Numbered from the stretch's first letter, positions 30,414-49,281 are shown. The stretch is 64,000 nt of DNA from an uncultured Bacteroidota bacterium (GCA_903847585.1 CAINEC010000007.1:8112-72111); one strand, 5' to 3'. Numbers and translations: made by a program. Notes: generated from the sequence alone by a model not told the origin.

Positions 30414-31585
30414 TTTTCTGATTCGATTAATTCTGCTAATGCTAAAAACATCCATGCCTGTCCCCAACGGATATACGATGTTTTGTCCTTGAAAAATTTA
30501 TACACTCTATAATAGAAATATCCTTTTTTTGATTGCATATTTTCGATGGTCCATTCCGCAATTGATTTAGCGAAGGAGTGTAACTCTGATGAATTATGTT
30601 TTAATCTGCACAAAGTAATTATTCCTTGAGCTTGATAGTGGATGTCTGTTGGATATAGTTTAGGAATTCTAAATAACGATCGTCCATTCGGTTCAAATTG
30701 CTGTAGGATATAAAAGCTGCACCCTTTGTTTAGTGATTGCTCGATGGTCTCATCTTTGATTTCGCAAAGCGTTGCAATGTTTGATATAGACTCTAATACA
30801 AATCCCTGATGAAAATCGGTTTGCGTTCGTTCGTTACCGTTAGATTTATTTTTACTATAGGCCCAATGTCCATCACTATGTTGTTTGTTTACTACATAGT
30901 TAATTATATGATGACATTTTTTCTTTATTGATTCATTTTTTGTTATAGCATAATTGATGGCTAAAATTTCTCCCGCCAATAATGACGCATTGTAACAGAT
31001 ATCTTTTTTTTCTGTTGAATAGCTATAGCAAATTCCTGATTCCTCTTCTGTAAAAGCTAAATCGCATAATACAAAATCAGAAGCAGATAGTATGATTGAT
31101 TTGATTTCTTCAGTTGGTTTAACTTTATATGCTTCGTAAAAACCTTTTATAATAAATGCTGTTGCAACTGAAGTGGGAGAGTAGGGCTTTAAATATTTTT
31201 CAGGACTACACCATCCAAAATTATATCCCCAGCAATAACCACTATATCCTTTTGTGCTTAACTCTTTTAATAAATTAATCAGTAATTCTATTTGTGGTGA
31301 ATAATCTTTCGATGGTTGCTTTTGTTGTAATACTGCATATGCATGTAACATTAATCCTAAACCCTTTGGATTGTAATCTTTTTTGATTCCTAATAAAGGA
31401 CGTATGTTAATGGGATTTCTTTTTTGGACTTGTGTGGCAATGATAGCTAACCATTTATTGATACTTACAAAAGGAATAAACGACATTAATGTATCATAAG
31501 GGTCATAGCCTTTATAAGACTCTCCTTCGATATAGTTCTGCAGTTTAATTAATGATTCTTCAATGCGCGACATAGTACTATTCAA
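30410..31585 (-). CDS. Hypothetical protein, possibly an (alpha/alpha) toroid-fold polysaccharide-modifying enzyme
   Basis: 391 aa with no signal peptide or TM segment. Periodic aromatic-rich helical repeats (GYCWGYNFGW, HWAYS, WGQAWMFLAL). The fold call is inference only. Confidence 0.35.
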   Translation of the reverse strand: MNSTMSRIEESLIKLQNYIEGESYKGYDPYDTLMSFIPFVSINKWLAIIATQVQKRNPINIRPLLGIKKDYNPKGLGLMLHAYAVLQQKQPSKDYSPQIELLINLLKELSTKGYSGYCWGYNFGWCSPEKYLKPYSPTSVATAFIIKGFYEAYKVKPTEEIKSIILSASDFVLCDLAFTEEESGICYSYSTEKKDICYNASLLAGEILAINYAITKNESIKKKCHHIINYVVNKQHSDGHWAYSKNKSNGNERTQTDFHQGFVLESISNIATLCEIKDETIEQSLNKGCSFYILQQFEPNGRSLFRIPKLYPTDIHYQAQGIITLCRLKHNSSELHSFAKSIAEWTIENMQSKKGYFYYRVYKFFKDKTSYIRWGQAWMFLALAELIESEK

Positions 31586-33704
31586 CCTTTATTGATTGTC
31601 CGTTGCTACGAATAGAGGTGATTGCTTTAAAAGTAGCAAGCATTGAATTGTAGATTTCTTCAAACGCAATTGGGTTTGACTTCCCTTCTTTTATTGAATT
31701 GATAAATTCAATTATTTCTTGCTGATGACCTTTATCTTGTTTCTGTTCGATTTTTTTATTTGTTTTACCAAACATGTTTAAGGATTTGAAATCATCGAGT
31801 ATATACGTGTTTCCTCCATTATATACTTCTATTCTTTCTTTTGCTAAATCTTTTGATCCATTAGCGTAATAACAAATATTAGCAATACTTCCATTTTCCA
31901 TTATCAAATTGATGGTCACCGTATCTTCGGTATTGTCGGCCGTTAGCATGCTGAAGCCTGAAACATATTTCACTTTACTTCCTGCAATGAAAGCACATAA
32001 ATCTATAAAGTGGCAAACTTCTCCAATGATTCTTCCTCCTCCAATTTTAGGATTTTGTGTCCAGTGATCAGCAGCTACCAATCCAGCATTGATTCGGTAA
32101 TGAATGGAAACTGGACTCTCACTACTTGTTTTTGATTTTATCATTTGAAGTAGTGGTGAAAATCGTCTGTTAAATCCAACCATGATATTGCCCTGATGTT
32201 TTTCGATATCAGCTTTAAGAATGTTTAATTCTTCCTCATTCAAACAAAGGGGTTTTTCTACAAATACATTCTTGCTATTCTCAACGCCTTTTTTTACATA
32301 TTCAAAATGACTATCATGTCGTGTAGTAATAAAAATCGTATTGATGTTTTCATCAGCAAATAAATCATTTACTTCATTCGTGCAATAATTAAATTTATAC
32401 TTCTGAGAGATGTTTATTGCATTATTCGACTTTCCAGTAGTAAGTCCAACAAATGAACTTTCTGTATTTGCGATTCTCGGTAAAAGGATGTTTTGTGCAA
32501 ATGATCCAGCTCCAATTAATCCGATATTAACCTTGCTGGCTTTTTTAGTTTGATTAAGAACAACTTTAGACTCTAGTTTCTTATCAATATCATATTTCAA
32601 TACTATTCCAGCAAATGGCTCACTTCTTTCCAAAATTAAATCATATGCGGACTTAGCATTAGAAAATGCAAATTCATGAGTGATGATTTTATCAATGGCT
32701 ATTTTTTGATCTTGTAATAATTTAGCAAAAGCCTGCATATTGCGTGTTTCTGTCCACCTAACATAAGCATAAGGATAATCAATTCCTTCTTCCTCAAATT
32801 CCGCATCATAACGACCAGGGCCATACGAACAAGACATTTTTAATTCAAGCTCTTTGATATAGTAATTCTTTCGAGAGAAGCCTGTTGGAACAGCACCTAC
32901 AATAATTACTTTTCCTTTCTTTCTGCAAATTTCTCCTGCTAATTCGATAGGGTCGTTTGAATTAGTACTTGCAGTGATAATTACAGCATCTGCACCATAA
33001 CCATTGGTGAATTCATTTATTTTGTTGGAGAGTAGTTCATCATTTCTTGATAATGCTAAATCAGCTCCCATCATTTTGGCTTTAGCAACTTGATTAGGGT
33101 CAATGTCAATTGCAATAACATTTACTCCTGATGCTTTCAATAGAGATACAGTAATCTGCCCAATTAATCCTAATCCGATTACTACACAATTTTCTGCCAA
33201 GCGCAAATCCGCTTGTCTAATGCCTTGCATCGCTATAGCTCCAACTGTTGTAAAGCATGCCGACTTTAAATCTGCATTATCGTTAAGCTTTACACATAGA
33301 TTAACAGAGATTGCCACTACTTCAGCATGAACAGCACCTGATCCACCACAAGCTACTTTATCGCCAATTTTAAAATCTTTTACATCATCAGCAACAGCAA
33401 TAATTTCTCCTGCACAACTATAGCCTAATGCACTTGGAGCATCGAGTTTGTTCATCACCATTTTATAAGTTTCGAATAGCCCAATTGTTTTAGCTGTTTG
33501 AATAACTTTTTTTACTTCTTCCTTTCTTGCTCTTGCTTTACCAATATATCCTAATCGCGCATCTTTAACAGTCTTTCCTTCAGTACCTGCGCTTATCAAT
33601 GAATAGTGATTACGAACTAGCACTTGGCCTGCATTTAACGCAGGGAATGGAACCTGCATAATTTGCATTGCTCCATCTTTTAAGTTTTGCGTCAGTTGTT
33701 CCAT
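31578..33704 (-). CDS. Bi-domain oxidoreductase: N-terminal zinc-type alcohol dehydrogenase (MDR) fused to C-terminal Gfo/Idh/MocA dehydrogenase
   Basis: The N-terminal half has an MDR pattern with Rossmann VIGLGLIGQ. The C-terminal half has IGLIGAGSFAQN, EKPL and GFNRRFSP, typical of Gfo/Idh/MocA. Confidence 0.8.
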   Translation of the reverse strand: MEQLTQNLKDGAMQIMQVPFPALNAGQVLVRNHYSLISAGTEGKTVKDARLGYIGKARARKEEVKKVIQTAKTIGLFETYKMVMNKLDAPSALGYSCAGEIIAVADDVKDFKIGDKVACGGSGAVHAEVVAISVNLCVKLNDNADLKSACFTTVGAIAMQGIRQADLRLAENCVVIGLGLIGQITVSLLKASGVNVIAIDIDPNQVAKAKMMGADLALSRNDELLSNKINEFTNGYGADAVIITASTNSNDPIELAGEICRKKGKVIIVGAVPTGFSRKNYYIKELELKMSCSYGPGRYDAEFEEEGIDYPYAYVRWTETRNMQAFAKLLQDQKIAIDKIITHEFAFSNAKSAYDLILERSEPFAGIVLKYDIDKKLESKVVLNQTKKASKVNIGLIGAGSFAQNILLPRIANTESSFVGLTTGKSNNAINISQKYKFNYCTNEVNDLFADENINTIFITTRHDSHFEYVKKGVENSKNVFVEKPLCLNEEELNILKADIEKHQGNIMVGFNRRFSPLLQMIKSKTSSESPVSIHYRINAGLVAADHWTQNPKIGGGRIIGEVCHFIDLCAFIAGSKVKYVSGFSMLTADNTEDTVTINLIMENGSIANICYYANGSKDLAKERIEVYNGGNTYILDDFKSLNMFGKTNKKIEQKQDKGHQQEIIEFINSIKEGKSNPIAFEEIYNSMLATFKAITSIRSNGQSIKVE

Positions 33705-36117: not shown

Positions 36118-37272
36118 TTAGATAAATAAGTGCAATGACGTTTTTATAGCCTTCACAAACCCCGTCGAGGCCTTTGAAAGTGAAGCATTGTTACGGATAA
36201 AGTCCCCAGCTTGTTTCCCTAATTCCTGAGCTTTTTCCGGATTTTCGATAATAAAATTGATTTTTTCTACTATTTCCTCTTTATTTTGATAATCTACAAT
36301 GTAACCATTAACACCATTGTTGATTAAATCTTCACTTGCCCCAGCATTTATAGAAGACAGACAAGGTACACCCGCAGCCATAGCTTCGTTTAGTACAAGT
36401 CCCCAAATGTCAAAGTCGGTTTGGAATAACAATGCCTTTGCTTTAGCAAAGTAGGGAGGAAGTTCTTCTTTCTGCTTAAATCCGTGAAATTTTATTTGAT
36501 TTGAAAGTTGATAATCAACAACCATTTTTTCTAGTGCTTGTTTGCTTTCTCCATCACCAATTATGTCAATACAAAAATCACTGCGTCGTGATTTTAAAAT
36601 TTTAGCAATTTCAATTAACTGACCAACATTTTTTCTTGGCACTAAATAACCAAGATAAATAAAGTGATGTATTCCATCATTAACGATTGCAGCTCTGTGT
36701 TTTTCTGTTTCTTGTTCAAAGAAACTTGTGTCGACTGTATTAGTTGCAATAAAAACTTTTTCTTCTCGAGCGCCTATACTTGTTAAATAGGATTTTGCTT
36801 TAGTTCCGTAAGCAACAAATGCAGATGCGAAACGAGTTAACAGTTTTCTTTGCATCGTTCTTACTAGACTATCTTTCCTTCCTTTTTTGGCTATTGAACC
36901 ATTCCAGATTATATACGGGGTTCGATTAAGCAAAGAATATAAAAATACTTTTACTGTAGCGCTTGAAAATCCTGATACAATTATTGCATCTGGCTTTTCT
37001 TTTTTCAATTGTTGACTAAGTCCTTTGTAGGTAAAATAAGAATTCTCTGTGTTGTTCCCAATCGTAATGGCTTCGTTATCTAAAAAAGAATAATCAAATT
37101 GAAATTCATTTTCATTCAATTGAAAGAGCCTTCTTTTATAAGTTTTATTTGCAAAAATTATTTTTAAATGAATATTCTCATTTTTTAATTGCTTAGAAAG
37201 CTCGTTGAATAACGGAACGCGATAGGGGTTGGGTATGTTGGTAATTAAAAGGACCTTCTTCATTACATCCAT
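36118..37272 (-). CDS. Glycosyltransferase, GT4-like
   Basis: WGLVLNEAMAAGVPCLSSINAGASEDLI EX7E region. The alternative start MKKV at 37263 overlaps the asnB-like stop by 1 nt. Confidence 0.85.
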   Translation of the reverse strand: MDVMKKVLLITNIPNPYRVPLFNELSKQLKNENIHLKIIFANKTYKRRLFQLNENEFQFDYSFLDNEAITIGNNTENSYFTYKGLSQQLKKEKPDAIIVSGFSSATVKVFLYSLLNRTPYIIWNGSIAKKGRKDSLVRTMQRKLLTRFASAFVAYGTKAKSYLTSIGAREEKVFIATNTVDTSFFEQETEKHRAAIVNDGIHHFIYLGYLVPRKNVGQLIEIAKILKSRRSDFCIDIIGDGESKQALEKMVVDYQLSNQIKFHGFKQKEELPPYFAKAKALLFQTDFDIWGLVLNEAMAAGVPCLSSINAGASEDLINNGVNGYIVDYQNKEEIVEKINFIIENPEKAQELGKQAGDFIRNNASLSKASTGFVKAIKTSLHLFI

Positions 37273-39161
37273 TTTTTAAACCATTGCATAATGAAATAAA
37301 TCGTCCAAAGATTATTCGTGTAATCTTTCTTCCCGTTCTTCATTGCATTAATTTGTGTTTTTAATCCCGACTCACTAAAAATATCGATGTTTTTACAAAA
37401 GCTGCTTAAATCACTTTCAATATTTCTGATAATAATATCTTGCGACCATTCTCTCAATGGAACACAGAATCCCATTTTCTTTCGATAAAGGATTTCATTT
37501 GGTAATGTCCCTTCTAGCGATTTTTTTAAAATGTATTTTGGTATTTTGTTTTTTGACTTTAGCGAATATGGAATCGACAATGCATAATCTACAAATTCAT
37601 AATCTAAAAAAGGATTTCGAATTTCAATACTATGTGCCATGCCTATACGGTCCATTCGATACAGGTATTTAGCAGGAATCAAATACTTATATCCCAAGTA
37701 GCACATCCAGTCTTTATCACTTAACCAATTGTTTTTCTCTCGAATTTTTTGAAATTCTGTAAGATGCTTTTTAATTACATCATAAGAATCTAATGAAGAA
37801 TGATTGCTTAGAAATTCAGATGATAAGATTTGTTTTTTAGTACTTTCTTTAAATGCTTTTGCTCCTCCCCAAAATAATTCTTGTCCTTTAGCAGCACGGT
37901 AAATTATTTCTTTAATACCTGTTTTGTTATCATCATAGCCTATCGTTGATGATGCAAGTTGTAATAGACTTTTAGGAAGCTTGTTCAATAAATTGTAATA
38001 AGGATATATCTGCTCATATTTTTGCCAACTATTATATCCTGCTAATAGTTCATCGGCACCGTCTCCCGTTTGTACAACAATCGTGTTGTGCTTCCTTGCT
38101 AATTCAGAAATAAAATAAACAGGAATACAAGTGGCATCAGCCATTGGCTCATCAAATATGGACACAACAGAGGGTAAAAAGTTTTCGATATCTTCTTTGC
38201 CAACTATTTTTTCATAATGATCGGTATTAAATTGCTTTGCTATTTTTTGAGCATAAATCCGCTCATCATAGTCAGGCTGTCCTTCAAATCCAACAGAGAA
38301 TGTTTTAATAGTTCCTTCTGTTCTTGCTCTCATCATTGCAACTACTGCACTGGAATCGACACCTCCACTTAAAAAAGCCCCAACAGGTACATCGGCCACC
38401 ATTCTTAAATCAACCGACTTATTTAATTTTTCATATAAAGTTTCTTCAATTGACTTTTCAGATGTATGATTTAAATTCTGATAGTGAATATTATAATACG
38501 AACTCATCTCGAAAATACCATTATTACTAACGGTCATGTATTCACCAGCACCAAGTTTTTTAATGCCTTTAAAAAATGTTGAAGGGGCATCTACATGATT
38601 AAAGGTTAAAAAGTGATAGAGCGCTTCTTCATCAATTTCTTTCTTTATCCAAGGTAATTCTAAGAGCGCTTTTATTTCAGATGAAAAAGAAAATACTCCG
38701 CCCATAATAGAGTAGTAGAGCGGTTTTTTACCAGCCCTGTCTCTAGCTAGTTTTAAAACATTATTCTTATTATCGAAATAAGCAAATGCAAACATTCCAT
38801 TTAGTTTATGTAATGCAGCATGCCCTTCTTTCTGATATAGTTGTAATAGTACTTCGGTGTCACTGTCGGATTTAAAAACGCAATCAGTGATTTCTTTTTT
38901 TATGGATTGATAATTATAAATCTCCCCATTAAAAACAATACAGTTCCCTCTTTCATCAAACATGGGTTGATGCCCAGCTTCTGACAAATCAATGATGCTT
39001 AATCGTAAATGTCCAAGTGCAAGTCCTTTTTCAGTATTGATATATGTTCCCTGATCATCAGGTCCTCTATGTTGAATACGTTGGTTCATGCGTGCTAGGT
39101 ATTCACTCGCTTCATTTGGCAAGCTGTTTCCCAGCATCATGAATCCGTTAATTCCGCACAT
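37263..39161 (-). CDS. Asparagine synthase (glutamine-hydrolysing)-family amidotransferase
   Basis: N-terminal MCGI nucleophile Cys2, RGPDD, and PP-loop SGGVDSS. Confidence 0.9.
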   Translation of the reverse strand: MCGINGFMMLGNSLPNEASEYLARMNQRIQHRGPDDQGTYINTEKGLALGHLRLSIIDLSEAGHQPMFDERGNCIVFNGEIYNYQSIKKEITDCVFKSDSDTEVLLQLYQKEGHAALHKLNGMFAFAYFDNKNNVLKLARDRAGKKPLYYSIMGGVFSFSSEIKALLELPWIKKEIDEEALYHFLTFNHVDAPSTFFKGIKKLGAGEYMTVSNNGIFEMSSYYNIHYQNLNHTSEKSIEETLYEKLNKSVDLRMVADVPVGAFLSGGVDSSAVVAMMRARTEGTIKTFSVGFEGQPDYDERIYAQKIAKQFNTDHYEKIVGKEDIENFLPSVVSIFDEPMADATCIPVYFISELARKHNTIVVQTGDGADELLAGYNSWQKYEQIYPYYNLLNKLPKSLLQLASSTIGYDDNKTGIKEIIYRAAKGQELFWGGAKAFKESTKKQILSSEFLSNHSSLDSYDVIKKHLTEFQKIREKNNWLSDKDWMCYLGYKYLIPAKYLYRMDRIGMAHSIEIRNPFLDYEFVDYALSIPYSLKSKNKIPKYILKKSLEGTLPNEILYRKKMGFCVPLREWSQDIIIRNIESDLSSFCKNIDIFSESGLKTQINAMKNGKKDYTNNLWTIYFIMQWFKKWM

Positions 39162-39162
39162 G

Positions 39163-40239
39163 TTATAAAGATAAGTAAACTTGGTTAATTGCTAAATCCA
39201 TTTTTTCAATGGAGAATTTCTGAGCGAATGCTTTACGATGATTTCGAAGCTTAGTTTCATTTATATCAATGGAGTGTTCAACTATTGAGTCAATAAAGAT
39301 TGTTAGCTCTTTTGTATTTTCAAAAACCATGTTGGGTTCACACTTATTTACTAATTCGGCTAATCCACCGCCATCACTATATACCGCTACTGCACATCCA
39401 TAAGAATAAGCCTCTATGGCAACAAGCCCAAATGCCTCATTGGTAGAAGGGGCAATTAATAGATCCCACTGGCTATAATAACTCGATAAATTATTTTTGA
39501 ATCCTAAAAGTTCGATTGTGTCAGTTAAATTATTTTTAGAAATCAGATGGATGATGCTCTCTTTCTGAGGACCATCGCCAATGAGTTCTATACTGATTTT
39601 AGATTTATCGCTTATAGCAGCGATGGCTTCTATTAGGCGATCAACTCTTTTTACCTCTACTAATCGACCAACAAATCCAATCCGAATAGTATCCGATGAT
39701 TTTGTTTGCTCTTCAATTATCAGGGGTAATTCAACTCCGTTATAAACAACACTTAATGACTTCGACTTTAGATGGTATTTTGCAATTGCTGTTGTTTTTG
39801 AAAATTCAGAATTGAAAGTGATGTGGTTGGCATATTTATTTAAAAATAATTCTTGAAGCTTTTTAGAAAACTTCTCTGAAATTCCTTGCTTTCTTTCAAA
39901 AGCAAAGTTGCCATGTTCGGTAAAAACAATTTTTCGTTTTGAACGAATAGCTGCAAGAGCAATTATTGGATTGAAAGAATGAAGATGGAGAATATCATAT
40001 TGCTTAAACATTTTCACACATTCATTAATTTTAGAAAAATTACTGCTTCCTTTTTTGAAATTGCCTTTTATTAAGTCAATGTTTTTTTCTTGTGCTTTTT
40101 CAATTAATGGTCCTTCTGATTTAGCAGCAAAGAGTGTAGGTTTTACAATATCATTATTTTGCTGCGCTATTGCTAAATTAAGCACAACGCTTTCTATCCC
40201 TCCGATATTCGACGACCATATGATATGTAAAACTTTCAT
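39163..40239 (-). CDS. Glycosyltransferase, GT4-like
   Basis: MKVLHIIWSSNIGGIE N-terminus and EAFGLVAIEAYSYGCAV EX7E region. ATG at 40239 sits 1 nt after the upstream stop. Confidence 0.85.
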   Translation of the reverse strand: MKVLHIIWSSNIGGIESVVLNLAIAQQNNDIVKPTLFAAKSEGPLIEKAQEKNIDLIKGNFKKGSSNFSKINECVKMFKQYDILHLHSFNPIIALAAIRSKRKIVFTEHGNFAFERKQGISEKFSKKLQELFLNKYANHITFNSEFSKTTAIAKYHLKSKSLSVVYNGVELPLIIEEQTKSSDTIRIGFVGRLVEVKRVDRLIEAIAAISDKSKISIELIGDGPQKESIIHLISKNNLTDTIELLGFKNNLSSYYSQWDLLIAPSTNEAFGLVAIEAYSYGCAVAVYSDGGGLAELVNKCEPNMVFENTKELTIFIDSIVEHSIDINETKLRNHRKAFAQKFSIEKMDLAINQVYLSL

Positions 40240-40240
40240 T

Positions 40241-40957
40241 TTATTTTTTTGATACTGTGATATAGCCAATTGGTCCGTAGCTAAATTTTCTAAATGCAGA
40301 TTTTAAAATAGGTAGTGGTCGTAAAGCCATGTATACTAATTGTGGTATCATCACCGTGATAAACAACAATGGATTAAACCATTGACCTAATAATTTGATT
40401 CGAGTAGCTTTCGCTAATAAATTCCAGAAACGCAATACAGGCTTCACAAGTAAGGTAATCCCGGCACCAACTACATCACTAACAGGATAAACAGATAGAT
40501 CTCTAAATCCACCTTTTTCAATTGTGTATTTTAATCCATATTGCGTGAAGCGATAATTATCCCATTGACCATCTGCAATCGGCACAAGATAGGGCGTAGT
40601 AAGAATGAGTGTTCCGCCTTTTTTTAATAATCTATAGCACTCATTAATTAATTCAGATGGTTCCTTCATATCTTGCATCACCTCTGTACATAAGATACAA
40701 TCAACGCTTTCATCAGGCAATGGGACATCGGTAGCTGAACAGTAAATGTCTATTGCTTTTTGTGGGAAAGGCATATCTGCCATTTCAGCCCCAATCGATT
40801 TGTCGAAATAGTTTTTATAAATCGAATAGTAGGGACGAGGTCCACATCCTAAATCAAGTAATGTAGCATCTTTAAAAGGATTATTTTTAAAATACTCTTT
40901 TAAGAAATCGTATCTCCAATTATTTTCGATTAACGCTCCAGGGTTTTTTAATTCCAT
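40241..40957 (-). CDS. Class I SAM-dependent methyltransferase
   Basis: LLDLGCGPRP motif I and LKKGGTLILT post-II region. Confidence 0.8.
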   Translation of the reverse strand: MELKNPGALIENNWRYDFLKEYFKNNPFKDATLLDLGCGPRPYYSIYKNYFDKSIGAEMADMPFPQKAIDIYCSATDVPLPDESVDCILCTEVMQDMKEPSELINECYRLLKKGGTLILTTPYLVPIADGQWDNYRFTQYGLKYTIEKGGFRDLSVYPVSDVVGAGITLLVKPVLRFWNLLAKATRIKLLGQWFNPLLFITVMIPQLVYMALRPLPILKSAFRKFSYGPIGYITVSKK

Positions 40958-40959
40958 TG

Positions 40960-41985
40960 TTAAACTAATTTTGACATTAAACTTGTTGTAAGTAATCCTA
41001 ATTTTGGAAAATGTAATTGATTATACATTTTCATTTCTTTGAAGAACTGAATTCTTTTCTCTAATATACTGTTTTCACATTTATCTGTATCTGGTAATGA
41101 AAACTCAAACTTGTTGAATCTGTTCATTAGTTTTAAATATCTTTTTTGACCAATCGGAGCAATGAAAGATGGAAAAAGGATTCCCTCGCGTGAATATGTT
41201 ATTGATGAAGATGATTTTAGTACTATGTTTTTTGAGAAGTTTCTACTTACGGTTGTAGGTAAATAAATTTCATCTTTTTCAAAAATAGATTTTAAAAAAT
41301 GGGAATAGGAATTATAAAATTCTAAAAACCACTTTTTAATTTCTACATCGCCTGGCTTTTGCAAGTGCCAATTAGCAATCCATTCTTTTGCTCTGGCTAT
41401 ATGCTTGTCGATTGGGGTATTACTAAGGTTTAAATAATTCAAATCATAGGTAAGTCCTTTAGTATGCTGAAGCAAATCCCTTAATTTAATTATTCCATAT
41501 TCTTTCTGTAGCGTTAAGTCGATATAGTTAGTAAATAAGAATTCTAAAGCTGTTTGTTTTTTTAGAGCTAATAATTCTTCATTCGAAACTAAAATATCGT
41601 TACCTTCAGGTTGTTCTCCGAAAATTAATTTTTGATTGTCCCACATCGCGTAGGATTTATTCTGAAACCAATGTTGCTCTGAAAGTGCCATTACTCCATG
41701 TGTAAACAACAATCTTTCTCTTTCTGTTAGATCGGAAATTATGTCACCACTAAAACAGCACTCTTTTTTAAAAGTGATCAGCAAGTCAATATCAGAAATG
41801 CCTGGTTGATTTACACCTCCAAAAGTACAGATGCATTTAACAGCTGGATTGGTTTTCAGCGAATCAACAACTTTTTCATATAAATGAAAGTAGTCTTCTT
41901 TTTGATAGCCTGTTAAAGGATAATTGATGATCTGCATACTAGAAATGAAGTTTACCAATTTTAAATCCTGTGAATTTGGCATCAA
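40960..41985 (-). CDS. Minimal nucleotidyltransferase-fold protein (paralogue 2), function unknown
   Basis: FGGVNQPGISDIDLLITF matches the pol-beta NTase hG[GS]x(9-13)DxD pattern, followed by THGV. A likely alternative start at 41937 (MQIINYP) abuts the upstream stop. Confidence 0.55.
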   Translation of the reverse strand: MMPNSQDLKLVNFISSMQIINYPLTGYQKEDYFHLYEKVVDSLKTNPAVKCICTFGGVNQPGISDIDLLITFKKECCFSGDIISDLTERERLLFTHGVMALSEQHWFQNKSYAMWDNQKLIFGEQPEGNDILVSNEELLALKKQTALEFLFTNYIDLTLQKEYGIIKLRDLLQHTKGLTYDLNYLNLSNTPIDKHIARAKEWIANWHLQKPGDVEIKKWFLEFYNSYSHFLKSIFEKDEIYLPTTVSRNFSKNIVLKSSSSITYSREGILFPSFIAPIGQKRYLKLMNRFNKFEFSLPDTDKCENSILEKRIQFFKEMKMYNQLHFPKLGLLTTSLMSKLV

Positions 41986-43339
41986 TTAAAGTTGAATTGC
42001 CCAATGGGCTGATTGTATGAATACCCTTTATACTTTTATTTTTGAAATCTTCTGGAGAGAACACTTCAATAATCTTTTCAGCATATTTTGTTTCTGATAG
42101 TTCTATGATTTCATTGAAAACTATTTTGCCACCATAGGTTAATCCGCTATTTTGTGAAGGACGAATAATTTTTCCTCCTATTTTGATAAAGCTTCCTGCT
42201 GGACGTGCATTAACGATTGAAGTAACAATTGGATTCAATGGATGAGGTTTCCATTGACCTGTTAATTCATCAGCAAAAAAAAGATTTAATTGATGATCCG
42301 ACATCTTATGTTTGGATGTTGTGCAGAAAAGCCAATATTTATCGTTGTGTTTTAAGATGGTATTGTCTACTCCAGGAAAATTATCAATTATTGTTTTTAT
42401 CATTTCCATTTCCTGTTTATTATCATTCCATTTGTATAGGTCAATCGAATTGGTCTGGTGTGTTTCTGGAATAATATAAATTTCGTTTGAGTCTTCCAAT
42501 ACAAACGGATAACTAAAGTGGAAATCAGCTTTTAATTTAAATACAATTCTTTGTGTTAAGCGTTCGCTTACTTCAATATGCCCTTTCTTTTTATTCCAAT
42601 TGTATTTCTCATAAATGATATAGTCGCCATTTCCTGTAGTAAAACCAAAAGGGTCAGCGATAAAATCTCGTTTGTTTTTAGTTTTTATCCACTGTACTTG
42701 TTTAAGCAGTATTTTGTTTTTTAGCACTTCCGAAACGGTGTTTTCTATAATACCAGTTTTCCAATAATGGTAGGTAAATGCAGTTTTAAGGTAATGCTTT
42801 ATCTTCTTAATGAAAAGTTCAAACTTGTATTTTCTAATTGGTATTGACTTCGGATGATTGTCTTGCCAGATTGTTTGGTTCTCAATATGGAAACGATTTA
42901 TCGATTCAATCAATAAGTTTGGAATTTTAGCAATTATAAATTTAAATGATCGATTATACGAATGATGGATTAGTAAATAGCGATGTCCATGTATTTGAAA
43001 AGATTGTTTTCCTGCAAACGTTTTTATTGTATTCAGAAAAAAACTATCATCATTATTGATAATGCTTTGATATAATTCTCTAGATATTCCTGATCGCAAA
43101 TTAGAAATAAATGGAATTTGTATAAGATTTTCGTGCGGATAATCTTTCTTAAATAGCGTATGGGTTGTAAAATTAATTACGAAATTATATTCCTTGGCCT
43201 TGGGGAAACTTTTTCGCAATTCGTGATTCCACTGAATAGTTTCAATAGAGCAGTTTAAATCAGACAATAGTTGTTTCCTGCATTTCTCAATTAGAGATTG
43301 CATAAATCCTTTGTCGATTATAAATGCTATTTTAATCAT
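41939..43339 (-). CDS. Two-domain hypothetical protein: degenerate formyltransferase-like N-terminal half plus beta-propeller-like C-terminal half (GH43/GINT1-like)
   Basis: The central HYWKTGI...FIADPF...YIIYEKY..KGHI pattern recalls the bacterial family annotated 'glucosamine inositolphosphorylceramide transferase-like'. The N-terminal half lacks the HxSLLPxxRG catalytic motif (reads IPFISNLRSG). Assignment is from memory. Confidence 0.4.
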   Translation of the reverse strand: MIKIAFIIDKGFMQSLIEKCRKQLLSDLNCSIETIQWNHELRKSFPKAKEYNFVINFTTHTLFKKDYPHENLIQIPFISNLRSGISRELYQSIINNDDSFFLNTIKTFAGKQSFQIHGHRYLLIHHSYNRSFKFIIAKIPNLLIESINRFHIENQTIWQDNHPKSIPIRKYKFELFIKKIKHYLKTAFTYHYWKTGIIENTVSEVLKNKILLKQVQWIKTKNKRDFIADPFGFTTGNGDYIIYEKYNWNKKKGHIEVSERLTQRIVFKLKADFHFSYPFVLEDSNEIYIIPETHQTNSIDLYKWNDNKQEMEMIKTIIDNFPGVDNTILKHNDKYWLFCTTSKHKMSDHQLNLFFADELTGQWKPHPLNPIVTSIVNARPAGSFIKIGGKIIRPSQNSGLTYGGKIVFNEIIELSETKYAEKIIEVFSPEDFKNKSIKGIHTISPLGNSTLIDAKFTGFKIGKLHF

Positions 43340-44273
43340 TCGGCCTTAAACTAATGATAAACAAAAGCAATTCACCTTTGATTTCTGATAAGGTGGTAAT
43401 GGCTTCTAAAGGTGTTTGTGATTTGCTTTTAATTTTTTTAATTGTTGTTTTTTTTAATTCTGACTTCTGTATTTTTTTTTGATGCCAGTTTGTTCTGATG
43501 TTCTCTAACTTCCTAATTAAAGATGTTTCATTTGATGGTAGTTGATTTTTAATTAAATCAAAGCTATCTTTTTTAGAAGTGTAATTTTGGTTTTTAGATT
43601 GTAAATATGAACAGGGGAGGAGTAATAATTCACTTAACATATTTTTGAAAAAATACTGGTTATGCCATTTGTCTTCCTGATCTAATTTGTTCTGAATACT
43701 TACTTTTAGTTTGTTAAACGAATTTGAGTAGTTTGATTTGTTTCTGTTATTGATTTGGAATTTACTATCTCCATAAATAACTTTCGACTCTTTTATAAGA
43801 TGGTAAATTATTGCATCGGAATTGTCCAACAATTCACTTTTGCTAATAACTAAAACACCATGATGTTGTAAGCAATCTTGTAGATGTGCTGTTAAATTAA
43901 TTTGTTCGATTAGTTTTTTTAGTTTGCTTGCCGAATTGTAATCAGTAAATTCAATTTCGTCATAAATCAATACGCCATCAAAATCACTGTAGTTAGTAAT
44001 TTCGTCTGACGCGATACTTCCAAATACTGTAAGCGCTATTTTATTTTCAAAATTATAATTAGAGCATAGTAATTCAAGTTCTTTAGCTAAAATATTATTT
44101 GAATTTAATGCTGGTAATTCTACTAGTTCTACATTTTTTAAAGTGTTTTTTTGTAGAATTGAATTCGCATCGACAAAAATTGAGAACACTAAACGAGCAG
44201 GTAAAATATTTGATAGGTATTTACTTGTTCTGCTAGTGTAGCCACTACTCAAATATTTCGACAGATTAGTCAT
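43332..44273 (-). CDS. Minimal nucleotidyltransferase-fold protein (paralogue 1), function unknown
   Basis: FGSIASDEITNYSDFDGVLIYD (G-S...DxD NTase motif) followed by HHGV, the same layout as the 40960-41985 product. K/N-rich helical C-terminal half. Confidence 0.55.
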   Translation of the reverse strand: MTNLSKYLSSGYTSRTSKYLSNILPARLVFSIFVDANSILQKNTLKNVELVELPALNSNNILAKELELLCSNYNFENKIALTVFGSIASDEITNYSDFDGVLIYDEIEFTDYNSASKLKKLIEQINLTAHLQDCLQHHGVLVISKSELLDNSDAIIYHLIKESKVIYGDSKFQINNRNKSNYSNSFNKLKVSIQNKLDQEDKWHNQYFFKNMLSELLLLPCSYLQSKNQNYTSKKDSFDLIKNQLPSNETSLIRKLENIRTNWHQKKIQKSELKKTTIKKIKSKSQTPLEAITTLSEIKGELLLFIISLRPND

Positions 44274-46779
44274 TGCTTTCTAAAAAGTTAATAATATTTG
44301 AAACTCTTATTTTAAATGTGTTTTGTTGCACATCAAATCTTGCTTGGCTGGCAATGATGGCTGATTTTTCTTCATCCTCTATTGCCATCTTTATTTTCTT
44401 AGCTAATTCATGTTCGTTTTCAGGCGCTACGAAATAGCAATTGTGTTCATTTAGTATGTCTTGTGTTGCAGGGTAGTTTGGAGTGATAATCGGATTTCCT
44501 GTTAACATGTATTCACATATTTTATTGGGGAAATTGTAGTTTACATCGTGCCCTTGTTTAGTGTAATAAGAAACTAGTATGTCTGCTGCAAACTGATAGT
44601 ATTTTATTTTTTGATAATCGTGAATGTAACCAGTGAAAACTGCGTTCTTTATACCATTGTCATCACACCATTCTTTCCAATAATCAACAGCTATAGGTTT
44701 TCCGCCAGTAAATATAAATTCATATTCAGGAAGTTTTTTAGCTGCTTTAAGAATATATTCTAATTCTAAATTATAATCGATTGCCAGCTTTCCGGTATAA
44801 ACAACCACTGGTTTTGAATGCTTGATTTCAAGTATGTCTCTTGCTTCAAATTTATCAATATAATCATCGGCTTGATCCTGGGTTATTGGATTAGATGAAA
44901 TGATTGTTTTGTTAATCGGATAGTTTGTTAATTGATAAATTGAATTGATGATTGATGAATTGGTTGCAATAATATTATCGCATAGTCCATAACTCCAATG
45001 AAATAGTTTTTTCTTGCTGAAGTCATGCGCCCAATAAGTGAACTTTAAGTTTTTTCTATTAAATGCTTTTGTTATTAAGAACGGAAATAAAATAGCAAGA
45101 CTTCTTGATATGACGATGTAATTATAATTTTTATCTCTTGAAAGTTTTCTGATTTGTAAATAATTTAGAATAACGATTTTCATCAGATTAAACTTTCCAC
45201 TTACATCAGATTTAAAATTTGTATTTAAATAATGAATGTTTAGTTTGTCGGAGATTCCATAAATTCTTGGTACATCATCTTTAGAAATATTATCTTCTCT
45301 TTTTACATAGGGAACGACCAAGTGTATGGTTCTATCATTTTGCACATATCCATCACAAAAGCGAACATCGCTAAGCTGATTAGTTCTAGGTCTTAAAATA
45401 TCATATGGTGATAAATAAATGTAAACTGTTTCTCTAGTATCATCGCTTAATGTAATTTTTTTGTTGATCCTTTTTAAGCAATAAAAAGCGAAAGAGAAAT
45501 TAATAAATAAATTAGCAGATAATAATCCTATTGCAACTCCAACTGGTCCTAAATGTGGGGTTAGAAAATATGCTATTATGAAGTTGATAATAATGGCAAT
45601 CGAGTAAATTTTTATTCTTTTATTGGTGAGATTAAGTCCTTGCATTAAAGGCGTAGTCCAAAATAAAATAGAGCCTGAGGCAGCTCCTAGAAAATGAATA
45701 AAAAATGTTGGGACTGATTGAATAAATGAAGGTCCGTAAACGAATGTAATTATATCACCCTTTAAGAAGAAGATAACGAGTGTTGCAATAGCAGAGGGAA
45801 TTATTGCGATGCTTGTTATTTTACCCATCATTAATCTAAGTTCCTTCCATTTGTTTTGAGCTACTAGGTGTGCTAATTGAGGATAGATGGAAGTTACTAG
45901 AGGGTCTGTAACAGTTAAAATCGCGTAAGCCAGTTTTTTTGAAACAGTATAAAAACCTACCGCGGCGTGTGTTCCAAAGAGGTTCAAAAGAAGAATATCT
46001 CCTTGATTTAAAAATGTTTTTAATGTGTTGCCGAATGAATTTCCGAAAATAAAATGTCTTACTTCGGCATAATGACTTTTAATAGCACTTGCTGGTGTTT
46101 TAAAATATGGGAGCAAGTCCTTTCTTAATTCAATGATGACTGACAAATTACAAATTAATGAGTTCAGTAATTTAGTCGATATGACTGTGTAAAAGAAGTA
46201 TTCAAGATTATTTGGGAAATAATAGATGGAAAGTGTAATTGCGGCAAATTCAACAGTGTCCATTATTATTTGAACAATTGAATTTACTTTAAATCGATAA
46301 TAAATTTTTAATACTGCTCTTCCAATATTATCTAAAAAGCAAACGCCATTTACAGCTGCATATAGGATAATAAATTTCTGAAGTCCTTCTATATCGAAGA
46401 AGTGTGGATATAAAAAGTAGGTTATTATTGCAATCACAATTACTGATAGCAATGCGGAAAGCATACTATACATTATACCTCTTTTCAGCAGGCTAATTAC
46501 TTTTTCTGGAGATTTGTGCGATATAAATTGAGCACCAAATTTTATTATTCCAAGCGGCACATTAAGTTTAATCACCTCTTGAATGGTGAGCACAAATGCA
46601 ATTATTACAGAATAAATACCCAGGATTTCTGCACCTAATCCGCGTGCTATGACAATTGATCGCAAAAAGGCGAGCAACACACCATAAACGTTCGACACAA
46701 AAACCCAGACACTATTTTTGAATAGTGTCTGAGTTTCTCCGTCTAAAGCAGATTTTAGTTTAGCACGAATTTGTTTCAT
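44266..46779 (-). CDS. Fusion protein: MOP-family flippase (Wzx-like) N-terminal half plus GT-B glycosyltransferase C-terminal half
   Basis: Residues 1 to ~440 contain about 12 hydrophobic segments in a typical polysaccharide-flippase layout. Residues ~450-837 are soluble, with the GT-B C-terminal motif NFPNKICEYMLTGNPIITPNYPATQDIL. Confidence 0.7.
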   Translation of the reverse strand: MKQIRAKLKSALDGETQTLFKNSVWVFVSNVYGVLLAFLRSIVIARGLGAEILGIYSVIIAFVLTIQEVIKLNVPLGIIKFGAQFISHKSPEKVISLLKRGIMYSMLSALLSVIVIAIITYFLYPHFFDIEGLQKFIILYAAVNGVCFLDNIGRAVLKIYYRFKVNSIVQIIMDTVEFAAITLSIYYFPNNLEYFFYTVISTKLLNSLICNLSVIIELRKDLLPYFKTPASAIKSHYAEVRHFIFGNSFGNTLKTFLNQGDILLLNLFGTHAAVGFYTVSKKLAYAILTVTDPLVTSIYPQLAHLVAQNKWKELRLMMGKITSIAIIPSAIATLVIFFLKGDIITFVYGPSFIQSVPTFFIHFLGAASGSILFWTTPLMQGLNLTNKRIKIYSIAIIINFIIAYFLTPHLGPVGVAIGLLSANLFINFSFAFYCLKRINKKITLSDDTRETVYIYLSPYDILRPRTNQLSDVRFCDGYVQNDRTIHLVVPYVKREDNISKDDVPRIYGISDKLNIHYLNTNFKSDVSGKFNLMKIVILNYLQIRKLSRDKNYNYIVISRSLAILFPFLITKAFNRKNLKFTYWAHDFSKKKLFHWSYGLCDNIIATNSSIINSIYQLTNYPINKTIISSNPITQDQADDYIDKFEARDILEIKHSKPVVVYTGKLAIDYNLELEYILKAAKKLPEYEFIFTGGKPIAVDYWKEWCDDNGIKNAVFTGYIHDYQKIKYYQFAADILVSYYTKQGHDVNYNFPNKICEYMLTGNPIITPNYPATQDILNEHNCYFVAPENEHELAKKIKMAIEDEEKSAIIASQARFDVQQNTFKIRVSNIINFLESND

Positions 46780-46794
46780 CGTCTACTTTTTAAG

Positions 46795-49281
46795 TTAGGC
46801 TTTGGAACTCTTTCGTTTAAATAGCTTTTTAAAAGTAGATTTCAAACTTTTTCTTTCTTTATCTTCTTCGTAATAGCCATAACCATAGCCATAACCGTAT
46901 CCGTAGCCATATCCATAACCATAACCATATTCATAACCGTAGCCATAGCTTCTGTTAGATGCCTTAATAGCGTTGAATACAATACATACATTTTTAAGCT
47001 TACCTTCACTATAAAGCTTATTGATAAAGTTCAAGTGGTGTTTTCTGGTAACACGTTGACGAACCACGTATATGCTTATATCAACATATTTCGATAATAC
47101 CATCGCATCGGTTATTAAACCAATAGGAGGTGTATCTAAAATAATGTAATCGTAGTTTGCCTTAAGATAAACAAATAGCTCATCCATTTTTGGAGAGATA
47201 ATTAATTCAGAAGGGTTAGGAGGTTTAGGTCCTGATAGGATAATATCAAGATTAGGAATTGTACCTGAATTCTGAATAATTTCTTTTTCATTGTTCAATC
47301 CAATAAGGTAGTTACTTAATCCAATCTCAGATACGAAGTCGAAACCAATCGTAATTTTCGGTTTACGTAAATCGCAACCAACTAGAATAGTTTTTCTTCC
47401 TGACATGGCCATCATACAGGCTAGATTCACGGAAGTAAAACTTTTTCCTTCTGATGATATCGACGATGTTACGAGAATCGTTGCTTTTTGATTTCCCTGA
47501 TTGAAATATTGTAAGTTCGTACGAATCGTTCTAAACGCTTCAGAGATATGCGAATTTGGTTTTTCTGTAACAACCAGGCTAGACTTTGAAGCACTTAATC
47601 CAATCATACCAATTACTGGAATGTTAGTTTTTGAATCTAAATCGTTACGGTCAATAATTCGATCGTTAAACGCTGTTCTGATGTAAATAAAGAATGCAGG
47701 TAAAATTAATCCGAATATAACGGCGATGGTATAACTTAAACTTTTGATTGGTTTAAGTGGTTTTATAAATGTTCTTGCATTGTCAATTATTCTATTGTCT
47801 GCTGTAGTTGAAGCTAGTAGAATAGCAGTCTCTGCTTTTTTCTGTAATAAGTAGGAGTAAAGTTGTTCTTTAATGTTTGAACCTCTTAACATACCTTGTA
47901 ATTCACGCTGAGCTGTTGGTAATCTTCTTAACTTAGATTCAACACTGCCTCGCTGACTTCTTGCTTCACCTAATGAAGCATTGATACCACTTTTCAGGGA
48001 TTTAATATTCTCTGATAAAGCTGCTTTAGTATTTGCAATCTCTGTATTTAAACTTACCATTAAAGGGTTATCTTCTTTAGATAAGTTTGACTGCGACTTT
48101 TTCTTATTTTCTAATTCGTTTAGTTTTAAAACGAGACTTTGTAAAAGCGGATCGTTTACTAAAATACTTCCTGGTGAAATATTGCCCGTTAAATTTTTAT
48201 TGTCGGAATTAACATAACCACCTAAATAATCAAGAAAACTACTTTGAACTGCCAATTGTGAAATTTGCCCATTGAAGTTTTTTACACTTTCTAAATATGC
48301 GTTTGCTTCAATTGATAAATCGGTTATCCCTCTTGAAACTCTGAATTTCTCAACATTTACTTCGTTCTCATTAATCTCTCCTGTTAATGCACCTAACTGC
48401 TGTTCGATAAAGTTCAACGTGTTAACTGCATACTCATTTTTAACTTCTATTCCTTTCTTTACATATAGTTCGCAAAGTTTATTTAAGAAGGCTTCATTCT
48501 TAGATGGCGTGGCTCCCTGAATAGATATTTGGAGCATTGATGCTTGTTTGCTAATTGGTTCTGCTTTTAATGCACTTTGATAAATATCTGTAAGTAGATT
48601 TTTATCAGCAACCTTAATAATAAATTTACGCTTTGAAAATTTTTTAGATTCGTATGGCTGTCGACTAAAGTCAGATGTCTTATCGATTGAAAATATTCCT
48701 AAATCATTACTGATTTTACGATTGAATAAATAGTATCCAATATATTCTGTATTGCCTTTAGTGTAGGTGAGTTTGTATTTATTGCTATTGATAATTTCTA
48801 ATTTGATAGAAGTATTAAAAGCAAGATTATATAAAGTATCTTCTTTTAAATCAAAAGGCTTCAACGCAAATATTTCAGACGTCTTTACATCTCCAATTAA
48901 GTAATAACTTTTGTAAAGTTGTAGCTCTTCAATTGTTTTAGAAATCAACATTCGAGATCGTATGATGCCGATTTCGTTTTCAATTCCGCCCTCATTATTA
49001 AAGGCTCCAAGCTGCGTTAGTAAATCACTACTATTTACATTCTTCTTCTCATCTTTAATTAATACAGTGCATGAAGAAAAATAGACTCTGTCGGCATACC
49101 AGTTATAGAAGTATGCTGTAACCAAAGAAAGGCTTAATGTATAAACATATAAATACCAATAGCGAAGGAAATACTTGTTTATTATTTGCGAAATGTTAAT
49201 CGTGTTTTCGCTTTCGTTCTTCTGATCGTTATTAGGGTTGTTTACTTTGTAGTCGTGAGCGGTAGTAGTGTCCTGATTCAT
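46795..49281 (-). CDS. wzc: Polysaccharide co-polymerase / BY-kinase (Wzc/GumC-like tyrosine autokinase)
   Basis: Wzz-like periplasmic coiled-coil region between two TM segments. Walker A SSISSEGKS, A' VGCDLRKP and B YIILDTPP. C-terminal Tyr cluster. Confidence 0.85.
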   Translation of the reverse strand: MNQDTTTAHDYKVNNPNNDQKNESENTINISQIINKYFLRYWYLYVYTLSLSLVTAYFYNWYADRVYFSSCTVLIKDEKKNVNSSDLLTQLGAFNNEGGIENEIGIIRSRMLISKTIEELQLYKSYYLIGDVKTSEIFALKPFDLKEDTLYNLAFNTSIKLEIINSNKYKLTYTKGNTEYIGYYLFNRKISNDLGIFSIDKTSDFSRQPYESKKFSKRKFIIKVADKNLLTDIYQSALKAEPISKQASMLQISIQGATPSKNEAFLNKLCELYVKKGIEVKNEYAVNTLNFIEQQLGALTGEINENEVNVEKFRVSRGITDLSIEANAYLESVKNFNGQISQLAVQSSFLDYLGGYVNSDNKNLTGNISPGSILVNDPLLQSLVLKLNELENKKKSQSNLSKEDNPLMVSLNTEIANTKAALSENIKSLKSGINASLGEARSQRGSVESKLRRLPTAQRELQGMLRGSNIKEQLYSYLLQKKAETAILLASTTADNRIIDNARTFIKPLKPIKSLSYTIAVIFGLILPAFFIYIRTAFNDRIIDRNDLDSKTNIPVIGMIGLSASKSSLVVTEKPNSHISEAFRTIRTNLQYFNQGNQKATILVTSSISSEGKSFTSVNLACMMAMSGRKTILVGCDLRKPKITIGFDFVSEIGLSNYLIGLNNEKEIIQNSGTIPNLDIILSGPKPPNPSELIISPKMDELFVYLKANYDYIILDTPPIGLITDAMVLSKYVDISIYVVRQRVTRKHHLNFINKLYSEGKLKNVCIVFNAIKASNRSYGYGYEYGYGYGYGYGYGYGYGYGYYEEDKERKSLKSTFKKLFKRKSSKA
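46870..46947 (-). repeat. In-frame hexanucleotide tandem repeat encoding (Tyr-Gly)n at the Wzc C-terminus
   Basis: The plus strand reads gta ata gcc ata acc ata gcc ata acc gta tcc gta gcc ata tcc ata acc ata acc ata ttc ata acc gta gcc ata. This encodes YGYGYEYGYGYGYGYGYGYGYGYGYY, 14 Tyr in 26 residues by my codon-by-codon reading. Confidence 0.9.

Follow-up and report, generated by a model that had tools for sequence, protein, structure and literature searches.

The enzymes that most closely resemble the system described here are the aminoglycoside O-nucleotidyltransferases ANT(3'')(9)/AadA, AAD(9) (a spectinomycin/streptomycin adenylyltransferase), and ANT(4')/KNTase (hereafter, the ANT enzymes), which consist of an N-terminal pol-beta nucleotidyltransferase (NTase) domain followed by a helical domain and act on sugar hydroxyls; among them, the kanamycin nucleotidyltransferase KNTase functions as a dimer whose active sites are shared. 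Two NTase domains also occur in tandem in the glutamine synthetase adenylyltransferase GlnE, which modifies a protein. LicD, fukutin, and FKRP are members of the NTase superfamily whose genes occur in glycan loci and which draw on nucleotide-activated donors to decorate glycans (PMC11666461), and WbdD of Escherichia coli O9a unites a kinase and a methyltransferase to cap the O-antigen with methyl phosphate (PMC3482155). Here, we analyzed a 64,000-nucleotide (nt) stretch of DNA, referred to as the window, from an uncultured Bacteroidota bacterium (GCA_903847585.1, CAINEC010000007.1:8112-72111). Its polysaccharide locus carries three adjoining genes, A, B, and C (Table 1), and our results revealed that two of them, A and C, encode NTase-fold proteins that form a conserved pair in the glycan loci of many bacterial phyla.

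The pairing emerged when the C motif was used to scan GTDB genomes, one per species, and all open reading frames (ORFs) of the resulting loci were then searched with profiles of A, B, and C. The 60 loci recovered (L014-L073) span Bacteroidota, Acidobacteriota, Aminicenantes, Actinomycetota, Planctomycetota, Saccharibacteria, Alphaproteobacteria, and others, and all of them come from metagenome-assembled genomes (MAGs), with no cultured isolate among the GTDB species representatives. One of the contigs (L039, 3.4 kb) is binned as a Thermoplasmata archaeon, an assignment that may be a binning error. A partners C in about 53 of the 57 assessable loci. Specifically, in 33 loci A immediately precedes C, mostly with an overlap of 4-14 nt; in 16 it is upstream with one or two genes between them, and in three it is farther off within the same locus; one locus has no A, and another three end at a contig edge. 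The gene intervening in the 16 loci is B in 11 cases, a Methyltransf_11 gene in L046 and L053, and a glycosyltransferase (GT) gene of the GT4 type in L048. Among the three more distant cases, A lies ~5.5 kb upstream on the same strand in L028, with B among the genes between, and on the opposite strand in L043 and L051. Beyond these genomes, an exhaustive search of 1.84 billion cluster representatives (clustered at 50% identity) with the C profile returned 1548 matches at E<=1e-3, 844 at E<=1e-10, and 320 at E<=1e-30.

B is placed between A and C only in the subset of Bacteroidota closest to the window, where the triad and its flanks are conserved in MAGs whose B is only 45% identical. The initial annotation of this region had presented the three genes as one module. 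The triad does recur outside its own genome, in glycan loci, and its members travel together within this Bacteroidota subset, but the conserved unit is the A-C pair, present in many phyla, with B an accessory that has been inserted or fused in some lineages.

Protein A exceeds the Pfam cut-off for NTP_transf_2 (PF01909) with 21.6 bits against 21, and all 32 of the A-family members compared match both NTP_transf_2 and Polbeta (PF18765), with a best E-value of 1e-7. Against the PDB, the A-family profile retrieved MNT-type NTases, DrrA, AAD(9), URT1, and KNTase at E-values of 2e-4 to 0.3. The pol-beta motif, hG[GS] x9-13 [DE]h[DE]h followed by a third carboxylate, is complete in this protein. Across 59 aligned A-family sequences, which were collected by their adjacency to C and not by motif, G85, S86, S96, D97, D99, H138, and K234 are invariant (59/59), and D133 (56/59), H137 (58/59), K210, and R260 are nearly so. 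D133 lies 34 residues past D99, and the region around it corresponds, roughly, to the strand bearing the catalytic Glu of AAD(9) in the PDB alignment; the His pair H137/H138 follows at 38-39 residues. Because the Gly-Ser pair, the DxD motif, D133, and the Lys/Lys/Arg set are conserved in sequences that were not selected on them, A holds the full set of residues expected of an active NTase that uses nucleoside triphosphates (NTPs).

Protein C is more divergent. Library scans assigned it to no Pfam or NCBIfam family; its scores against NTP_transf_2 were below the cut-off (13.8-17.2 bits), and weak matches to this family were found in 30 of the 48 C-family members. The AlphaFold2 model of C (pLDDT 93.9, pTM 0.91) found AadA and AAD(9) as its best Foldseek matches (E ~2e-4, probability ~1, TM-score 0.3-0.4, identity 12-14%), followed by 3c18 (an uncharacterized NTase-like protein), Hailong HalB, ANT(4'), LinB, and MNT antitoxins. 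This confident model thus predicts a divergent NTase-fold protein, closest to the ANT(3'')(9) aminoglycoside adenylyltransferases. The pol-beta motif is only partial in C: G40 and D49-x-D51 are invariant, position 41 is Ser, Asn, Gly, or His, and there is no conserved third carboxylate, its place being taken by the invariant H80. The longer C motif given in Table 1 is also found in 63/63 genome loci, a count that is partly circular, as the motif was itself the search pattern.

BLASTP of A against C produced no significant match. Profile-profile comparison with hhalign, however, aligned the two families over the NTase core (E = 4e-5, probability 70%), with LQHHGVLVI of A opposite LFTHGVMAL of C, and the two proteins are probably distant paralogues. 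The initial annotation had come to the same view from the motifs of the two proteins, each of which is indeed followed by His-Gly-Val (H138 of A and H80 of C); the profiles, the hhalign comparison, and the model of C all agree with a common core and a conserved His after the DxD. Nor have orthologues lost the DxD carboxylates, with D97/D99 retained in 59/59 A sequences and D49/D51 invariant in C. The same annotation had pointed to the LicD/fukutin type of phosphotransferase, and here the comparison went the other way. The LicD profile (PF04991) did not match A or C themselves at E<=1, nor, at E<=0.1, any of the members searched from the A family (32) and the C family (48), and the top 50 Foldseek matches of C included no structure of LicD, fukutin, or FKRP. 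We therefore rejected a LicD-type identity, given 80 family members without a profile match and no structural match for C in that top 50; a further difference from LicD, fukutin, and FKRP is that, here, two different proteins are paired.

The ANT enzymes, which are the best structural matches of C and among the best profile matches of A, are similar to both in architecture, with a pol-beta NTase domain at the N-terminus and a helical domain after it. C departs from them in its extra C-terminal alpha/beta domain, in the lack of a conserved third carboxylate, and in an identity of only 12-14%. Further, A and C, unlike the ANT enzymes, have an invariant His at or beside the position of the third carboxylate and form a heterologous pair in biosynthetic glycan loci, rather than being resistance genes. 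The catalytic Glu/Asp base of the ANT enzymes lies ~38 residues past the DxD, compared with 34 residues for D133 and 38-39 for H137/H138 in A, and C has only H80 in this region; the sequence matches underlying this comparison are weak.

Gene fusions identify the partners of the pair. A and C are joined in one ORF in two Saccharibacteria (L067, 643 amino acids [aa], and L073, 632 aa), and six of the top 150 matches of C are B-C fusions (P0231, P0234, P0243, P0264, P0272, and P0323; 596-920 aa) that unite GINT1_N and the C domain in a single chain. In L064 (Rhodothermales), C bears a C-terminal Methyltransf_11 domain, and a TPR-sulfotransferase-GT1 protein of the same locus has A as its C-terminal domain. 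With fusion partners that vary by lineage (A, B, or a methyltransferase), C acts as the hub of the module.

The middle protein, B, is composed of two domains. Its C-terminal domain is a clear match to GINT1_N (PF24793; E = 6.4e-33, 114.5 bits, cut-off 27), and the AlphaFold2 model of B (pLDDT 94.2) retrieved five-bladed propellers of GH117, GH43, and GH130 in Foldseek (E ~1e-7, TM-score 0.35-0.5). The profile of Glycoside hydrolase family 43 gave 20.9 bits, below its cut-off of 32.2, such that the fold alone is in common. B retains all 14 of the columns that are invariant over 106 homologues, and its conserved polar residues are D229 (in the ADPF motif typical of this propeller clan), E244, H274, E292, D325, H366, N369, R379, R393, H441, and D453. 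The N-terminal domain was recognized only through its relatives. A single-sequence PDB search with B found no match, and B itself has no Pfam match to Formyl_trans_N (PF00551); the B-family profile, in contrast, matched Met-tRNA formyltransferase (4iqf; 4e-9), the formyltransferase domain of ArnA (2e-7), and sugar N-formyltransferases (6e-6), and this match spans exactly the catalytic His loop and the LDAG Asp. Some relatives of ~550 aa reach the Formyl_trans_N cut-off, and the long relatives retain HHGD..RG and LDAG. In the clade to which the B of the window belongs, the W-S-F-H-H-G-D...R-G-x-P-x-x-F-W-E loop is deleted and LDAG is lost; in the B of the window, the alignment shows a gap of ~19 residues, and FAGKQS replaces LDAG. 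Comparison of the B-clade N-domain with the N-domains of the long relatives in hhalign was weak, with a probability of 26% over residues 2-39 only, and the formyltransferase ancestry of this domain is drawn from positional homology in the full-length alignments together with the family profile. The initial annotation had anticipated both the GINT1/GH43-like propeller, now seen with Pfam, AlphaFold2, and Foldseek, and a formyltransferase-derived N-domain that has lost its HxSLLPxxRG loop, to which the loss of the LDAG Asp can be added; this half of B thus appears to be catalytically dead.

B is a clear member of the GINT1_N family, which includes the bacterial "glucosamine inositolphosphorylceramide transferase family" and in which the formyltransferase-like N-domain is also found. 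Members of the clade that accompanies A and C (466-525 aa) differ from these relatives in having lost the His loop and the LDAG Asp and in their placement, either inserted between the A and C genes or joined to C in a fusion. Stand-alone relatives of B (in Formosa, Evansella, and one MAG; ~550 aa) adjoin GT4 genes in Wzx/Wzy loci that have neither A nor C. We found no member of the GINT1_N family with a demonstrated activity in the literature, and the three proteins did not all return confident matches to characterized families with known products. In one locus with a B-C fusion (L079, 1531-13236), the fusion gene is followed by genes for an acyl-CoA dehydrogenase, KAS III, a GNAT protein, a stand-alone Formyl_trans_N protein, and two each of acyl carrier proteins and AMP-binding ligases, a cluster whose content suggests acyl or formyl tailoring of an amino sugar.

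The genes surrounding the pair are those of glycan assembly. Three genes were tallied on each side of 35 A-C pairs without B: upstream, these included GT1/GT4 glycosyltransferases (15), class-I methyltransferases (10), Wzx (7), ABC exporters (6), and GpsA-like dehydrogenases (6), and the 99 genes downstream included 35 with GT4 domains, 16 for AsnB-like amidotransferases, 7 for methyltransferases, and 4 for Wzy. Most often, the genes run in the order GT - A - (B) - C - (Methyltransf_11) - GT4 - AsnB - GT4 - Wzy, with a GT gene directly upstream of A in most loci and a Methyltransf_11 gene directly flanking the pair in many. The placement of the module within a glycan locus, as initially annotated, is conserved. 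In six loci from related Bacteroidota (L009, L029, L034, L035, L036, and L038), genes for an MsbA-like ABC exporter, a GpsA-like NAD-dependent dehydrogenase, and a 385-aa Methyltransf_11 protein precede A-C, replacing Wzx and the GT; this arrangement hints at a link to glycerol phosphate in these loci. On another, short contig without an A gene (L077, 492-7067), genes for a Methyltransf_11 protein and a phosphotransferase of the APH family (PF01636; 23.6 bits, cut-off 23.2) are found close upstream of a B-C fusion, with Wzx between. The coupling of a phosphoryl-type transferase to a class-I S-adenosylmethionine (SAM)-dependent methyltransferase, as in the C-Methyltransf_11 fusion of L064 or in the kinase and methyltransferase of L077, recalls WbdD, although by analogy only. 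WbdD has a protein-kinase-like fold and terminates chains in an ABC-transporter pathway, whereas the locus in the window is Wzx/Wzy-dependent and A and C have the NTase fold.

From the observed pairing, fusions, motif conservation, folds, and glycan context, we infer a physical association, an acceptor, a donor, and a chemistry, and on balance we lean toward A and C being two parts of one NTase-fold enzyme system for polysaccharide assembly, physically associated and engaged in glycan tailoring together with the methyltransferase. A would be the canonical catalytic subunit, with the Gly-Ser pair, the DxD, and the third Asp in place and with Lys/Lys/Arg residues of the helical domain able to bind triphosphate as in ANT-type enzymes. 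C would be a diverged paralogue that keeps a metal/nucleotide site (PGISDxD and the invariant His) and adds the alpha/beta domain, and the two would most likely associate in the manner of dimeric kanamycin nucleotidyltransferase with its shared active sites. Together they would use an NTP or a donor linked to a nucleoside diphosphate (NDP) and place a nucleotidyl- or phosphate-linked substituent onto a sugar hydroxyl, the acceptor presumably being the lipid-linked repeat unit freshly made by the neighboring GT4 enzymes. Either this substituent or the sugar that bears it would next be methylated by the adjacent Methyltransf_11 protein. In the Bacteroidota lineage, B would join as an additional partner, whose propeller, with its complete conserved polar site, probably binds or processes the same sugar. 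As A, B, and C have no transmembrane segments, they are predicted to work on the cytoplasmic side. More tentatively, A and C may constitute, together with the lineage-specific partners B and Methyltransf_11, an unrecognized, widespread, heteromeric class of NTase-fold glycan-tailoring enzymes that places a nucleotidyl or phosphate substituent, possibly methyl-capped, on the exopolysaccharides (EPS) of uncultured bacteria. Should that class exist, its decoration and its enzyme architecture might, with similar reservation, be ones not described for any characterized polysaccharide pathway; we found no characterized homologue in the literature on bacterial GINT1-like proteins, NTase-fold glycan enzymes, ANT-like O-antigen genes, or WbdD.

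Several observations weigh against a physically associated A-C enzyme. Every genome match is a MAG, and the structural likeness of C to the ANT enzymes, significant by its Foldseek E-value, comes with low TM-scores (0.3-0.4). C, lacking a conserved third carboxylate, may not itself be a nucleotidyltransferase, and it is not strictly dependent on A, since three B-C fusion loci have no A in the flanks sampled. The association with the methyltransferase, GT4, and AsnB genes could stem in part from the inheritance of one whole locus type, as opposed to direct coupling. Finally, the fusions and overlaps fit consecutive enzymes of a pathway as well as they fit a complex. Such a scheme, which we judge distinctly less probable but worth taking seriously, would have A make an NDP-alcohol or NDP-phospho-donor from NTP and a phosphorylated small molecule (e.g., glycerol-3-phosphate), for which Tam41, an NTase-fold cytidine diphosphate (CDP)-diacylglycerol synthase, provides a model, and C transfer the phospho-alcohol to the glycan in the manner of LicD or fukutin. 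It would explain a locus without a separate CDP-alcohol synthase, no gene for which was found in family profile scans across the 29-50 kb locus, and it suits a pair of divergent NTase-fold proteins of which A has the complete NTP-using motif set and C does not. The GpsA-like glycerol-3-phosphate dehydrogenase two genes upstream of A in the six closely related loci is also in line with it, and the Foldseek search with C did retrieve Tam41, if only at E = 0.2-0.4. Within the NTase superfamily, the LicD subgroup uses CDP conjugates (PMC11666461), but the LicD profile and structure searches described above were negative for both families and for C, respectively. Further, most loci, including that of the window, have no dedicated gene for the supply of a phospho-alcohol, and the association with the methyltransferase is left unexplained by this scheme.

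The two remaining alternatives move A and C away from glycan chemistry. That they are regulators, which reversibly AMPylate or UMPylate an assembly protein (a GT or Wzc), one adding and the other removing the group as in GlnE, seems to us improbable. The A profile does match the AMPylator DrrA/SidM and MNT antitoxins, and two divergent NTase domains, in some lineages on one polypeptide, resemble the tandem architecture of GlnE; yet these matches are weak (E ~1e-3) and confined to the generic NTase core, beyond which there is no sequence match to GlnE. The best structural matches of C are instead ANT enzymes that modify the sugars of small molecules, and the fusions to a GT, a methyltransferase, and the formyltransferase-like/propeller protein all involve tailoring functions, in keeping with the glycan-tailoring context that sets A and C apart from GlnE. 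Least probable of all, and in our view barely tenable, is the suggestion, also raised at first annotation, that a system unrelated to glycans is hitch-hiking in the operon; an MNT-type toxin-antitoxin or an anti-phage defense based on NTases would be examples. A matches PDC-S09 and PDC-M70A of PADLOC weakly (E = 1e-4 to 1e-2; 12-20 bits, over the generic MNT core) and NCBIfam MntA at 17.6 bits against a cut-off of 60. The known anti-phage NTases in PADLOC give generic-core matches only, with Hailong HalB and CBASS CD-NTases ranking low in the Foldseek search with C, and A (313 aa) and C (325 aa) exceed MNT antitoxins (~100-150 aa) two- to threefold in size. There is no HEPN partner, the toxin with an Rx4-6H motif that adjoins MNT in type VII systems (HEPN_Swt1 matched at E = 0.1), among neighbors that are GT, methyltransferase, and AsnB genes, and virtually all of the ~70 loci with the pair, across many phyla, are glycan loci. 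Translational coupling to GT genes, fusions to a GT and a methyltransferase, and a GC content at third codon positions (GC3) like that of the neighbors likewise speak against a passenger, and an A-C enzyme system for polysaccharide assembly remains the reading that we favor.

In the window, the module is embedded in a Wzx/Wzy-type polysaccharide locus at 29-50 kb that is bounded by paaA and runs in the order Wza, Wzc, Wzx-GT4, A, B, C, Methyltransf_11, GT4, AsnB-like amidotransferase, GT4, Wzy, and GT4; it further holds an ADH/GFO-IDH-MocA fusion, one gene without an assigned family, and DUF354. A, B, and C are translationally coupled between the Wzx-GT4 fusion and the Methyltransf_11 gene. 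The end of the Wzx-GT4 gene lies inside the start of A, with an 8-nt overlap (ATGACTAA, 44266-44273), and the end of A lies inside the start of B in the same way (ATGATTAA, 43332-43339). The stop codon of B (41939-41941) is followed, after a 1-nt gap, by an ATG at 41937, and C is separated from the start of the methyltransferase gene by 2 nt. C was listed as 40960-41985, with 341 aa from a TTG; because nearly all of its homologues have 323-329 aa, its true start is likely the ATG at 41937, giving 325 aa. The three minus-strand ORFs and their junctions, read from the sequence, are hence as initially annotated, and homologue lengths back the start at 41937 that had been offered there as an option.

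Table 1. Coordinates of the A-B-C genes, their motifs and domains, and the adjoining genes in the window.
Feature	Position	Strand	Length	Description
Gene A	43332-44273	minus	313 aa	pol-beta-type NTase and helical C-terminal domain; upstream member of the A-C pair
A catalytic motif G85-S86-x10-D97-x-D99 (GSIASDEITNYSDFD)	43977-44021	minus		from translation
A residues D133-C-L-Q-H137-H138	43860-43877	minus		candidate third carboxylate/general base, then His-His pair
Gene B	41939-43339	minus	466 aa	formyltransferase-like N-domain and GINT1_N propeller
B N-terminal domain, residues 1-190	42770-43339	minus		degenerate, formyltransferase-like
B C-terminal domain, residues 191-466	41942-42769	minus		GINT1_N five-bladed beta-propeller
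Gene C	40960-41937	minus	325 aa (from ATG at 41937)	divergent NTase fold, helical middle domain, C-terminal alpha/beta domain
C motif G40-G-V-N-Q-P45-G-I-S-D49-I-D51	41785-41820	minus		from translation; invariant among protein-database homologues
C H80	41698-41700	minus		His on the strand after DxD; 61/61 aligned sequences; equivalent of A H138
Wzx flippase-GT4 fusion	44266-46779	minus	837 aa	Polysacc_synt, residues 20-304; Glycos_transf_1, residues 643-814
Methyltransf_11 SAM-dependent methyltransferase	40241-40957	minus		Pfam E = 1.6e-13
GT4	39163-40269	minus		Pfam; conserved downstream companion of the A-C pair
AsnB-like glutamine amidotransferase	37263-39161	minus		Pfam; conserved downstream companion of the A-C pair

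Base composition sets the module apart only in part. The EPS locus as a whole is low in GC (0.28-0.35, compared with 0.36-0.41 in the flanks), and A, B, and C, at 0.28-0.31, lie at its low end (neighbors 0.31-0.35), in agreement with the A/T-richness that had been noted by eye. In the computed profiles, however, GC3 is flat, with values of 0.25-0.27 in A, B, and C that are indistinct from those of the neighbors (0.24-0.31); the low GC of the three genes is therefore due to amino-acid composition and not to codon usage. The separate acquisition of the triad that this richness had been taken to hint at is not supported, given the flat GC3 and the synteny of the whole block in relatives whose B is only 45% identical.

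Other genes of the locus have features of their own. In two relatives with a B of 45% identity, the position of the Wzx-GT4 fusion is occupied by three genes (L001, 3776-7048, and L004, 3747-7031), for Wzx (450 aa), a Methyltransf_24 protein (247 aa), and a GT (373-389 aa); the lineage of the window therefore appears to have lost the Methyltransf_24 gene and fused the two genes flanking it. The Wzc-like tyrosine kinase (46795-49281, minus strand) ends in a very regular Tyr-Gly repeat (YGYGYEYGYGYGYGYGYGYGYGYGYY), presumably an autophosphorylation cluster. The Methyltransf_11 protein has a hydrophobic C-terminal segment at residues ~194-216 (FNPLLFITVMIPQLVYMALRPL; Kyte-Doolittle 1.66 over 19 residues) that could serve as a membrane anchor. 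The GT4 ORF that follows is listed from a TTG, giving it a 29-nt overlap with the methyltransferase gene; its orthologues have 335-370 aa, and its true start may be slightly downstream. Finally, the 708-aa fusion of an ADH_zinc_N dehydrogenase and a GFO/IDH/MocA oxidoreductase (31578-33704, minus strand), also found in L011, L030, and L033, is kept at the distal end of the same locus type in several phyla.

Polysaccharide loci are rich in genes annotated as "hypothetical" or "nucleotidyltransferase domain," which limits the prediction of glycan structures, and one such unit is now defined: a module of two paired NTase-fold proteins that counts ~1,500 representatives when clustered at 50% identity, spans many phyla, is found only in uncultured lineages, and has partners (a GT, a methyltransferase, and the GINT1_N propeller) identified through gene fusions. 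If its chemistry were solved, the module would add a new tailoring reaction to the glycan toolbox, make a function testable in bacterial members of the GINT1_N family and, through them, in the N-terminal domain of plant GINT1, and improve the annotation of EPS loci in metagenomes.

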